Shown here: positions 5,355-55,340 of the stretch, piece after piece | How the letters are laid out: each line of letters opens with the position of its first letter | How positions within the stretch are numbered: position 1 is the stretch's first letter | Assembly (NCBI GenBank): GCA_048937405.1 | Contig: JBHLNF010000002.1 | Span: 352,001-416,000 of the forward strand | From: Promethearchaeota archaeon | GTDB taxonomy: Archaea; Asgardarchaeota; Lokiarchaeia; Sigyniarchaeales; SOKP01 | DNA length: 64,000 bases | Direction: 5' to 3' | The notes under the pieces: model-generated | The model's input: only the letters and a program-made list of their open reading frames with translations | The model's database searches: none | What the model was told of the DNA's origin: nothing | Translations under genes and position numbers: made by a program

Positions 5355-6275
5355 ATGACTGAAAATAATTATATTCAAGATTATATAAAAGCGGGAAAAG
5401 GTGTAATTGCTGCTAAAAAGATGGCAAGGAAGATAACTAAGCCTGGGACCTCTTTTTTGGAAATTGCAAATAAATGTGAAGCTGAAATAATCAAAACTGG
5501 ATGTAATCTTTCTTTTCCCATTAATATGTCATTAAATGAAATTGCAGCCCATTACAGTCCTCCAATTGATGATCAAACAATAGTCCCAGATAAAGGATTA
5601 TTAAAAATCGATATCGGAGCACATTTTAATGGGTATATAGCAGATTCAGCATTCACCATCAATATAGATGAAGATCCTAAACTTCAGAACTATATTGAAG
5701 CCGCAAAAGAAGCTCTTGAAGCAGCAATTGAATTATTTAGACCTGGAACTAAATTATATGAACTAGGTGAAGTAATTGAGCGAAAAATTACAAGTCGAGG
5801 TTTAAAACCAATAAAAAATTTAGGTGGTCATGAATTAAAACGATACAATTTGCATGCTGGTCCGTTTATTCCAAACTATGAAGAAAAAGTTCATAACCAG
5901 GAACTCAAATTAGGAGATGCATATGCTTGTGAGCCTTTCACGACTTCTGGAGCAGGAAGAGTTGTTAATGGGGACCATGCTTATATATATCGTTTTTTAA
6001 AGAAGGTTAAGAAAAACATGTCTTATGAGCATTTAGGATATATGAACAATGTTGAAAATAGTTTTGGAAAGCTTCCTTTTTCACCACGATGGATTGAAAA
6101 GAATAATATAATCCCAAAAAGTAAAATTCAAAGAACACTTGAATTTTTTATAGGAAAAAAAATTTTAAGTAAATATCCTATTTTAGTTGAAGCTTTAAAA
6201 GAACCTGTAGCTCAAGAAGAGCATACCATTATTTTGGATTTAGAAGGGAACAAGATTGTCACAACTAAAAAATAA
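5355..6275 (+). CDS. map: Methionine aminopeptidase type II
   Basis: FPINMS..IAAHYSP, KIDIGAH.NGYIADSAFT, NLGGH, LHAG, EPF, AQEEHT metal-ligand motifs. Confidence 0.95.
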   Translation: MTENNYIQDYIKAGKGVIAAKKMARKITKPGTSFLEIANKCEAEIIKTGCNLSFPINMSLNEIAAHYSPPIDDQTIVPDKGLLKIDIGAHFNGYIADSAFTINIDEDPKLQNYIEAAKEALEAAIELFRPGTKLYELGEVIERKITSRGLKPIKNLGGHELKRYNLHAGPFIPNYEEKVHNQELKLGDAYACEPFTTSGAGRVVNGDHAYIYRFLKKVKKNMSYEHLGYMNNVENSFGKLPFSPRWIEKNNIIPKSKIQRTLEFFIGKKILSKYPILVEALKEPVAQEEHTIILDLEGNKIVTTKK

Positions 6276-7131
6276 TCTTAAAGAAAAACTAAGTGTTGTT
6301 ATTTTATGTGCGGGAGAGGGAAAAAGGCTTAAAAAAGTAACGAAAAGAAATCCTAAACCTTTATTAAAACTGGAAATTTTAGGACATAAAAGTATACTTC
6401 AAGATACTATTTTTAAATTTGAAAAATTAGGAATTGAGCAAATTGTAATTATCATTGGCCATTTAGGGTCAACTATCGTGGATTTTATTTCAAAATTATC
6501 AAAAAATAATGTTTCATTTCAAAATAAATTAATAGTAATTGATTCTAAAAATCGATATAAATTTGGACCATTATTTTCTTTTTTATCCATTACTAAGAAT
6601 AAAACAGTTTACAACGAAAAAAACAGTTATTTATTAATTCCTGGAGATACTATTTTTGATTTTAATTTATTAAAGTCAATTTTGAGTATAATTTCAGAAA
6701 ATACAAATTTACTTCATAAATATCCATTTGTTTTTTATCAAACTACAACTTTAAAGAGATTAAGAGAAATTCAACCTAAAAAAAAGATAATCTCTAATGC
6801 TGAACTTGACATTGAGGGTTCAGAAATTATATTAAAAAGGATTTCTCAAATAAAAATAAGAAGTAGTCATTTACAAGCGGAATTAAAGGAAACAATCCCT
6901 GTTTTTTACTTAAATTACGAAACTATAAATGAAATCTTAAATTTAAAGAAAGATCTTCCAATCACTACTGTATGGGAAGCATTGAATTATTTAATATCAA
7001 ACAAAAAGAGAGTTAATGCATATAAAGTTGAGAACAAATATCCTTATTTTGATATTGATACTAAATATGATTTGAAACTATTAAAAAAAGAAGAGGACAA
7101 TAGGTGCTCCGATTATTCAATGAATAATTGA
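6256..7131 (+). CDS. NTP transferase / nucleotidyltransferase family protein
   Basis: VILCAGEGKRL...PKPLL, PGDT and FDIDT motifs. Confidence 0.8.
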   Translation: MSQLKNNLKEKLSVVILCAGEGKRLKKVTKRNPKPLLKLEILGHKSILQDTIFKFEKLGIEQIVIIIGHLGSTIVDFISKLSKNNVSFQNKLIVIDSKNRYKFGPLFSFLSITKNKTVYNEKNSYLLIPGDTIFDFNLLKSILSIISENTNLLHKYPFVFYQTTTLKRLREIQPKKKIISNAELDIEGSEIILKRISQIKIRSSHLQAELKETIPVFYLNYETINEILNLKKDLPITTVWEALNYLISNKKRVNAYKVENKYPYFDIDTKYDLKLLKKEEDNRCSDYSMNN

Positions 7132-7546
7132 TTCAGTGGAAATAACCAATAATCCTCCATTGAAGCAATTTAGTAATCAAAGCTCCTATTAAATTATTTA
7201 TTCTTTGTTTCGATTTATTGGTATTATGCTTAAAAGTCTCTTGTATCAACTAAATCTAACAAATATTCAACAAGAATTCTGTTTTTCTCATTTGATCATA
7301 TACCAAAATCGCAATAACGAATAGTACCATAAAATAATGCCCCAAAGTGCTGGATCAGAAATCATCTGGATATTACTCAATGTTTATAGCACTACAGGAA
7401 CAGGTGATTATAATGAATTAATTTTTTAAAGCTTTTACAGAATTTAATTTCTCATCAGAGTCTAAAAAAAAAAATATACCAGAAATTAATCGGTGTAAGA
7501 ACCGTAATTTAGTTTCTTTATCCAATGCAAAATATACCTATTGTCC
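7095..7546 (-). ncRNA. Candidate ~450-nt structured non-coding RNA of unknown family (alternative: MITE-like element)
   Basis: 11-bp terminal helix GGACAATAGGT/ACCTATTGTCC, several nested internal helices, TTTAAATA at -24..-31 and a T-tract just past the 3' end on the minus strand; no long ORF apart from the last ~12 codons of the upstream CDS. Confidence 0.55.
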
Positions 7547-7569
7547 AGATAAACATATAACAATTTGAC

Positions 7570-7583
7570 TATTTAAATTTTGT
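7570..7583 (-). promoter_or_regulatory. Putative BRE/TATA box (ACAAAA-TTTAAATA) for the 7546-7095 transcript
   Basis: TTTAAATA lies 24-31 nt upstream of G7546, the canonical archaeal spacing. Confidence 0.45.
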
Positions 7584-7689
7584 TATTAAGACAAATAATC
7601 AGATCTTTGGATTTTTTGACAAAAATTGTATAGATTTAAGAAATAGATTAATATAATATAAATATCAGAAATTACATTATTTATAAAAT

Positions 7690-8064
7690 ATGTCTGTAGC
7701 TATAAAGATCAATTTATTTGGTATAGGTATTATTGAAGCGGATATTATTCGTCATATGGCACCTCTTACAGCAGATGCGGTTATTGATAAATTACCCTTT
7801 GTGCTAAGAGGGAGATTTAGTTTTGGTTCAAAGAAATATTGGACCTTACCAGGAATAGAAATATTTAAAGGAGCTAATTCAAAATCAACAGAAATAGTAG
7901 AAAAAGGTGATATTATATATAATCCTAAAACAGACGAATTTATAATTTCATTGGAAGATCAAGAAATACCAAATAAAGTAAATAAAATTGGGAAGGTTAC
8001 AGCTAACCTTGAAATATTGTTGCAAGCGAGAAATGGATTAAATACAAAAATAGTTAAAAAATAG
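7690..8064 (+). CDS. Cyclophilin-like fold protein (DUF369/TM1367-like)
   Basis: APLTADAVIDKLP, VEKGDIIYNP and VNKIGKV pattern typical of the archaeal cyclophilin-like family. Confidence 0.7.
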   Translation: MSVAIKINLFGIGIIEADIIRHMAPLTADAVIDKLPFVLRGRFSFGSKKYWTLPGIEIFKGANSKSTEIVEKGDIIYNPKTDEFIISLEDQEIPNKVNKIGKVTANLEILLQARNGLNTKIVKK

Positions 8065-55206: not shown

Positions 55207-55340
55207 TGGGAGAGGAGGGATTTGAACCCCCGACCACTTGGCATCTGGAAACTATGCCAAAGCATTAATTTTCCCCAGCCAAATTAACTTGATTGGTTAA
55301 ATACCAATTAATGTATCATACCAATCTAGACTACCCTCCC
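55207..55340 (-). tRNA. tRNA-Pro(GGG) with two introns (27/28, 30 nt, 55283-55312; canonical 37/38, 30 nt, 55243-55272)
   Basis: Acceptor GGGAGGG/CTCTCCC, spliced anticodon arm CTTGG-CTGGGGG-CCAAG, T arm GGGGG-TTCAAAT-CCCTC; 74 nt after splicing. Confidence 0.88.

Follow-up and report, generated by a model that had tools for sequence, protein, structure and literature searches.

Between an NTP-transferase gene and a cyclophilin-like gene of a Promethearchaeota archaeon lies a segment of about 450 nt with inverted repeats at its ends, and it raises the question of whether it is a mobile-element relic, a divergent copy of a familiar RNA or an RNA gene of a new kind. The segment occupies positions 7095..7546 of the stretch of DNA analysed here, hereafter the window (64,000 nt; GenBank assembly GCA_048937405.1, contig JBHLNF010000002.1, positions 352,001 to 416,000 of the forward strand). 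A preliminary description, made from the sequence alone, had proposed an independently transcribed, large non-coding RNA (ncRNA) with its own promoter and terminator, and had considered a highly divergent RNase P or signal recognition particle (SRP) RNA and a miniature inverted-repeat transposable element (MITE) besides. The proposal of a new, independently transcribed ncRNA is supported by its conservation, by a promoter and terminator of constant geometry, by covariation and by wobble pairs specific to one strand, and the segment is a real feature that represents a new RNA family, matching no described RNA. It is probably a previously undescribed ncRNA gene of ~450 nt on the minus strand, the product of which may be a stable, protein-binding scaffold.

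Promoter, terminator and strand of the RNA gene

We set the ends of the gene body (7095..7546, minus strand) from the promoter distance and the terminal helix, which place the 5' end at or near G7546 and the 3' end just past C7095 within a U-tract, giving a length of ~452 nt in the window copy compared with 356–630 nt in relatives. The minus-strand TATA box and T-tract reported in the preliminary description are both present. The box (TTTAAATA, 7571..7578) lies 25–32 nt before G7546, with an A-rich stretch resembling a B recognition element (BRE; 7579-7590, minus strand, TAATAACAAAA in the RNA sense) immediately upstream, and TCTTCTTTTTTT at 7083-7094, in the minus-strand reading, comes after the last C. 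In the RNA, this oligo-U tract (UCUUCUUUUUUU, 7083..7094) starts right after the last paired base, C7095; oligo-U is an established archaeal terminator signal.

This arrangement is widely shared. In 78 aligned promoters from five genera, the TATA box is near-invariant and stands 30–31 nt before a GGAYAAU start or, in one subgroup, before an extended start, and the same spacing is repeated in eight more genera, making 13 in total. The subgroup with GAAAAGGACAAU at the start position carries AUUGUCCUUUUC at its 3' end, so that the first base predicted to be transcribed is still the one at which the helix opens. Nothing in the locus is better conserved than the TATA box with the A-rich BRE-like stretch, and a U-rich run follows the 3' arm in every relative examined. 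The RNase P RNA gene of the window genome has a similar box (AAGATTTATAAA).

The wobble evidence for strand, which the preliminary description had called mixed, in fact favors the minus strand by about 3:1. Among the pairs predicted by RNAalifold in 77 sequences, we counted 382 G-U cells against 128 A-C cells on the minus-strand reading, and the terminal helix alone has 16 G-U cells against 4 A-C cells. Stem H1 of the 3' domain (described below) contains two near-invariant U-G pairs, which would be C-A mismatches if read on the plus strand, and nearly all one-sided changes in this stem lead to G-U or U-G. This asymmetry in the predicted pairs, H1 and the terminal helix indicates that the RNA is the minus strand, and we are highly confident that the gene is located there.

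The region shows no sign of coding. No open frame of at least 40 codons exists in 7132-7689 on either strand, with stops throughout all six frames; the indels among homologues are not multiples of three, and there is no conserved open reading frame (ORF). A small-protein gene was considered and dropped.

The two ends of the RNA form a covarying helix

The 11-bp end-to-end helix reported in the preliminary description is an exact match: GGACAATAGGT at 7095-7105 recurs as its perfect reverse complement at 7536-7546. In the RNA, the 5' arm of this helix, P1 (GGACAAUAGGU, 7536..7546), thus pairs along its full length with the 3' arm (ACCUAUUGUCC, 7095..7105). A match to GGACAATAGGT with at most one mismatch is expected by chance ~0.6 times within the window. 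Among relatives, the 5' and 3' ends form a helix of 10–13 bp with several independent compensatory changes: P1 positions 1–10 are paired in 91–100% of 62 distinct end pairs, position 4 is CG in 48, UG in 9, UA in 3 and GC in 2, position 10 is GC in 24, UA in 24, AU in 7, GU in 3 and UG in 2, and position 2 is once A-U. In the subgroup with ...GCAAAUUGUCC, the inner P1 pairs are lost and the helix is lengthened outward by GAAAA/UUUUC.

Reading of the sequences indicates that the inner 3' strand of P1 (CCUAU) can pair either with the 5' end or with an AUAGG internal to H1, and a conformational switch at this strand is possible. At position 10, the covariation partner of the strand is the 5' end, and in the GAAAA subgroup, the P1 and H1 helices simply stack.

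Conserved features of the RNA body

The 3' domain (7100..7189, minus strand) is the best-conserved part of the RNA body. Its basal stem, H1, pairs 7175-7189 (AUAGGAGCUUUGAUU) with 7100-7114 (AAUCGGAGCACCUAU) and encloses a hairpin, H2/H3 (7124-7172), with the upper part UUCA-UGGA...UCCA-UGAA. In an alignment of 81 matches (A3) fitted with a covariance model of this domain (R1, built from alignment A2), 90.9% of cells are paired and 10 of 28 pairs show double changes, with 63 such cells; this alignment leans towards the model and includes two reverse-strand rows. Shuffles reach the observed values in 0–2 of 500 runs, and in slid controls, 34–53% of cells are paired. The TTCAGTGGA/TCCATTGAA pairing of the preliminary description proved to be the hairpin of this domain and is supported by the covariation in relatives.

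Near the other end, the first hairpin after P1 presents a CAUUGG motif in or next to its loop (7522..7527, minus strand). No other internal sequence of the family is as well conserved; the motif occurs in each of the 13 genera, 14–23 nt from the 5' end. It is followed by a small hairpin, CGGU...ACCG (7491..7504, minus strand), extended by AAAUU/AAUUU in the window copy. The corresponding CGGT/ACCG pairing, noted previously at 7491-7494 and 7501-7504, holds in relatives: the hairpin is kept in genus g1, U-G variant included, and by reading of the sequences, genus g14 has a different, longer hairpin (AACAAC/GUUGUU) in its place.

Further in, an internal U11 tract (7464..7474, minus strand; RNA positions 73–83) is enclosed by a stem formed by 7481-7489 and 7444-7452. 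This stem around an A/U run, recognized in the preliminary description, represents a covarying hairpin in its local form. In most genera, most homologues have a run of U6-12 in a hairpin loop 80–110 nt from the 5' end, and the stems closing this loop differ by lineage yet stay complementary (UCUGG/CCAGA, UGUGA/UCACA, UCCGA/UCGGG, GCCAA/UUGGU). The RNase P and SRP RNAs of the window genome contain no internal run of five or more U, indicating that such a U-rich loop is unusual for a stable archaeal RNA. Two deletion variants, L053 (genome G019, 372 nt) and L117 (genome G110, 410 nt), lack the entire U-tract hairpin region while keeping both ends and the 3' domain; either this region is dispensable or the contigs of these metagenome-assembled genomes (MAGs) are mis-assembled.

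The central stem, P5 (7336..7402, minus strand), pairs UGUUCC with GGAGCA (GGGGCA in the window copy) and AGUGC with GCACU around a variable hairpin. The AGTGC/GCACT pairing of the preliminary description therefore holds in relatives. Across 36 sequences of g1 and g14, P5 shows the pair series G-C/G-U/A-U and C-G/U-G/U-A together with one invariant U-G pair; it is not recognizable in more distant genera. Short invariant blocks of the RNA include CAUUGG, UAC..GAGACA and GGAGC.

Other pairings suggested for the window copy fared less well. The ATTATTCA/TGAATAAT hairpin (7112-7128) falls in a segment that is variable and deleted in several relatives, and by reading of the aligned sequences, the TCTTGT/ACAAGA pairing is not kept. 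In some subgroups, the long nested arm (CGATTT/AAATCG, TTGGTAT/ATACCAA) reappears with an altered sequence, but it does no better than shuffles: in a crude alignment-free test, the complementarity of the central arm was 8.5 bp, compared with 8.1 bp in shuffles. Consensus folding of the whole molecule with RNAalifold on 77 sequences aligned by MAFFT E-INS-i yielded 49 pairs only, and folds of individual subgroups gave inconsistent long-range pairings. The characterization as multi-domain structured is supported in part: it applies to both ends, P5, the hairpin with the U-loop and the 3' domain, and the helices of the rest of the middle did no better than chance. The overall picture is of an RNA whose ends and 3' domain are firmly established, with a small number of conserved features at its center and a middle that evolves fast.

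A single syntenic copy across one archaeal family

The assembly to which the window belongs (4.47 Mb) contains one full-length copy of the RNA gene, and the remaining matches are AT-rich fragments of at most 60 nt with E > 0.03. In BLAST searches of the same genus, the 452 nt matched a single locus in each of 22 genomes out of 24 sampled, and the 5'-most 106 nt (plus sense) matched in 38 of 53 other genomes of that genus, both ends being conserved and the middle variable. We extracted 38 full-length copies of 356–514 nt. R1 then identified exactly one full-length match per genome in four genera (47/52, 32/42, 5/8 and 1/1), which adds up to 85 of the 130 family genomes. A second model, R2, built from sequence alone on the promoter and the first 48 nt (alignment A4), reached further, with one match in 114 of the 130 genomes (~88%) and 13 genera. 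In all, ~190 genomic and ~80 metagenomic copies can now be retrieved. Outside the family, R2 gave a weak match in 1 of 14 sister-family genomes and none in the five genomes from two other families, and R1 found nothing in five near-complete sister-family genomes, even at E up to 1.

Three genera share one gene order: AspRS-like, M24 peptidase, NTP transferase, RNA, cyclophilin-like, VTT, Alba, JAB. In a fourth, g13, the syntenic site holds a 630-nt version (L326:771-1403, minus strand) with the family 5' end, the CAUUGG motif, a complementary 3' end and a U-tail. It lacks the AUCGGAGC 3' domain, which is why R1 misses it: with filters off, R1 gave nothing convincing at this site, and the homologue was seen by eye and then matched by R2. 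In one sister-family genome, the syntenic place has no space for the RNA gene, and the cyclophilin-like gene is present there without it. Copy number, synteny and covariation, which the preliminary description had named as points to check, favor an RNA gene, with one full-length copy in the genome, the same locus in relatives and covariation in P1, the 3' domain and P5.

Genomes G144 (contigs C57 and C117), G138 and G127 have two matches each with the RNA models; these assemblies show 5–9% contamination, and strain mixture rather than true duplication may explain the second match. In a scan of 596 Gb with a 17-base pattern, the matching contigs are recorded as Promethearchaeota/Promethearchaeia MAGs, that is, Loki-type Asgard archaea, and the bacterial matches fit the number estimated to arise by chance. 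Several contigs bearing the RNA (L146, L149, L167, L173, L214, L221 and others) were labelled Hermod-, Thor- or Hodarchaeota by their submitters, others Promethearchaeota, and the RNA could serve as a marker for tidying such taxon labels.

Genomic setting

The RNA gene is convergent with the NTP-transferase ORF (6256-7131, plus strand), ~37 nt of the end of which run into the 3' end of the RNA gene. Here the ORF encodes the tail DNRCSDY (7095-7131, plus strand, encoded by GGACAATAGGTGCTCCGAT); in another genus, the tail reads DNRSSDF, for a common pattern DNR[CS]SD[YF]. The conservation of this tail seems to be a by-product of the conservation of the RNA gene. The cyclophilin-like gene is also on the plus strand, and the RNA promoter stands back-to-back with it, the two having a promoter region of ~110 nt in common. 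No transposase or nuclease genes were found near the RNA locus, and no Orc1/Cdc6 domain occurs among the ten neighboring proteins within 8 kb. Elsewhere in the window, 55207-55340 (minus strand) matches the tRNA model with 34.3 bits over 134 nt for 71 model positions, and is probably an intron-containing tRNA gene.

A proposed scaffold role and the points against it

The near-consensus promoter, the single syntenic copy in ~88% of the genomes and the co-evolving ends suggest a housekeeping-type role. The evidence places the start at or beside G7546, set by the strong BRE/TATA promoter, and the end of transcription at the oligo-U tract past C7095. The first 10–13 nt pair with the last 10–13 nt, such that the mature RNA is closed by a terminal helix up to its very ends. 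Beside this helix stand a long 3' hairpin domain and a 5' hairpin on which CAUUGG is displayed, with P5 and the U6-12-loop hairpin kept in many lineages and the remaining interior evolving fast in sequence and length. Such an RNA may be stable and abundant and could act as the scaffold of a ribonucleoprotein (RNP), with the closed ends guarding it against exonucleases and with the CAUUGG hairpin, the 3' domain and the U-rich loop as candidate protein docking sites. Archaeal Sm-like proteins (SmAPs) bind oligo-U, which makes the U-loop a candidate site for an Sm-like protein. That the RNA works as a scaffold RNP of this sort is our best guess, and a tentative one.

Several observations weigh against this account. 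The first ~37 nt, counted from the plus side, double as the C-terminal tail of the NTP transferase, and part of the conservation could be shared with it. Complete genomes of sister families do without the RNA. A metagenome scan for transcript-sized contigs turned up no transcript-like ones among the 99 stretches returned, all of which were genomic and at least 1 kb long, and no transcriptome from a cultured member of the family is known to us. The structural signal is also limited. In the comparison with dinucleotide shuffles that the preliminary description had suggested, the window copy does fold below the shuffles on both strands, but modestly (z = -2.15 on the minus strand, -4.37 on the plus strand), and the mean z of 11 homologues (-2.8 on the RNA strand, -2.4 on the other) does not separate the strands. 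Most of the interior is without covariation support and is unrecognizable between distant genera. Finally, a U11 tract inside the gene is expected to stop a sizeable fraction of archaeal transcripts, which is odd for a product of 450 nt.

Alternative explanations

This last point leads to the main competing idea, namely, that most transcripts end at the internal U-tract and yield a product of ~100 nt. The working product would then be a short RNA of ~80–110 nt, and the downstream 350 nt would reflect read-through or a second function; because the 5' arm would be common to both, either form could trap the other. U6-12 tracts are efficient archaeal terminators, the position of the tract is conserved in most genera, and as noted above, the tract is unusual for a stable RNA in this genome. 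However, the 5' end covaries with a partner 350–600 nt downstream and no part of the body is better conserved than the 3' domain, both of which require the long RNA, and the tract lies inside a covarying hairpin rather than after one and is missing from some genomes. We consider a short product unlikely.

The position of the gene suggests another possibility, a cis-acting antisense or regulatory RNA that controls its neighbors through the 3' overlap with the convergent NTP-transferase gene or through its promoter, arranged back-to-back with the cyclophilin-like gene. Several genera retain both the overlap with ORF 6256-7131 and the ~110-nt promoter region in common. This overlap spans only ~37 nt, however, and looks like an ORF running on to its first stop, and regulation of this kind does not need a conserved fold of 450 nt. 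Moreover, the whole block of eight genes is syntenic, so that the adjacency may be inertia, and a sister family has the cyclophilin-like gene without the RNA. An antisense role therefore appears improbable.

The size of the RNA, its closed ends, the family-wide single copy and the short invariant blocks would also suit a large ribozyme of a new class. Its interior, though, is mostly poorly conserved across genera, unlike the cores of known large ribozymes, and we identified no pseudoknot or conserved junction, leaving catalysis quite improbable.

The locus could instead act as DNA, with inverted protein-binding repeats around an AT-rich stretch, as in a replication origin. Its terminal repeats are 440 bp apart, a related third copy of the repeat lies inside the element, the interior is AT-rich, and the word TTCAGTGGAAA in genome G000 may resemble the core of an origin recognition box (ORB). 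This ORB-like word is not conserved, though, and no Orc1/Cdc6 gene is encoded within 8 kb. The changes in the arms are compensatory, pass through G-U intermediates and are strand-asymmetric, which is not predicted for a DNA site, and the promoter and terminator stand exactly at the arm ends. We assign this explanation a very low probability.

Slighter still is the chance of a plus-strand element, that is, the 3' untranslated region of the NTP-transferase mRNA or a leader of the cyclophilin-like gene. Both neighbors are on the plus strand and the window copy has the better z on that strand (-4.37), but the z-scores across homologues do not favor it, the wobble asymmetry opposes it, with near-invariant U-G pairs turning into mismatches, the TATA box is oriented towards the minus-strand start and keeps a constant distance from it, and by reading of the sequence, the cyclophilin-like gene has its own TATA-like box nearer to it.

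A MITE or mobile-element relic, with 11-bp terminal inverted repeats and an AGA target-site duplication, can practically be dismissed: the ends do resemble such repeats, and AGA adjoins both of them in the window genome, but there is one copy in 4.47 Mb and one locus per genome in relatives, with no dispersed copies, at the same site and among the same neighbors across genera, and the flanks are AGA/AGA in some genomes only and AAAA/TTTTC or GAGA/TCC in others, complementary rather than direct, some extending the inverted complementarity, with no conserved flanking duplication.

Relation to known RNAs

The family has no counterpart among the RNAs described to date, and the covariance-model search that the preliminary description had recommended indicates that it is not a known one. 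Rfam 15 gave nothing at the curated gathering thresholds in the element; at E up to 10, the only matches in 6900-7800 were two sub-threshold chance hits to microRNA models, one of them in the flanking ORF; and at E up to 1, 19 diverse homologues had zero matches (models for OLE, ROOL, GOLLD, raiA, 6S, tmRNA and Y RNA included). We found no description of such an RNA for Asgard archaea in Rfam 15 or in the published literature searched.

The suggestion of a highly divergent RNase P or SRP RNA does not hold, given that genuine full-length copies of both reside elsewhere in the genome; the preliminary description could find the signatures of neither, and neither Rfam model matches here. The genuine RNase P RNA (G000 contig C9:4676-4998) is full-length and scores 135 bits with RF00373, above the cut-off, whereas this model, which encodes the CR-I and CR-V strands of the P4 pseudoknot, has no match at gathering score in the window, in 6900-7800 at E up to 10 or in the 19 homologues at E up to 1. 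The new RNA resembles RNase P RNA and eukaryotic RNase MRP RNA in size, in a P1-like helix joining the ends, in a strong promoter of the stable-RNA kind and in having one copy per genome, but lacks both a covariance-model match and the CR-I and CR-V blocks. Similarly, it shares with archaeal SRP (7S) RNA a stable character, paired ends and a single copy, but RF01857, with its helix 8 and Alu domain, matches neither the element nor the 19 homologues. The genuine SRP RNA (G000 contig C21:47670-47986, L047) is a full-length RF01857 match with E = 8e-17. The SRP RNA of the window genome scores 75.6 bits against an Rfam gathering score of 96.5, so that standard annotation would miss SRP RNA in this lineage.

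Guide RNAs were judged by the presence of C (RUGAUGA) and D (CUGA) boxes or of an ACA box 3 nt from the 3' end. UGAUGA is confined to G000 and G023, without conservation among the aligned relatives, which speaks against a box C/D guide, and the 3' end, ...UAUUGUCC, has no ACA, as an H/ACA guide would. A circular RNA flanked by bulge-helix-bulge motifs was likewise rejected, the terminal helix being without bulges, as was an omega- or bridge-type guide RNA, with no transposase or nuclease gene nearby.

Like eukaryotic small nuclear RNAs (snRNAs) and the RNA ligands of archaeal SmAPs, which are bound by Sm/Lsm proteins, the new RNA has a conserved, presumably single-stranded U-rich tract between helices. 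Its tract lies in a hairpin loop, however, its flanks are not consistently RAU(4-6)GR, and snRNA folds are absent, so that this is a resemblance only. A more specific version of the scaffold proposal, in which the RNA forms the core of an RNP specific to one Lokiarchaeia-type Asgard family, with Sm-like proteins on the U-loop and others on the CAUUGG hairpin and the 3' domain, is rather doubtful. If true, such an RNP would be the archaeal counterpart, by analogy, of small nuclear and nucleolar RNP organization in the closest prokaryotic relatives of eukaryotes. To our knowledge, few large archaeal ncRNAs are known besides rRNA, RNase P RNA and SRP RNA. Asgard archaea are the nearest known relatives of eukaryotes, and a new stable RNP among them would bear on the diversification of RNA machines before eukaryogenesis. 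Even if its role is modest, the family merits an Rfam entry, as the gap would otherwise be read as empty or as a mobile element.

The closest analogues in kind, not in sequence or fold, are the bacterial OLE, ROOL, GOLLD and raiA RNAs. These, too, are several hundred nt long, independently transcribed and lineage-restricted, were of unknown function when found, and were recognized by conservation and structure. They contain many covarying helices, whereas the new RNA is archaeal, combines conserved ends, a 3' domain and one central stem only, shows no sequence or structure match to them in Rfam 15, and is strictly single-copy and syntenic.

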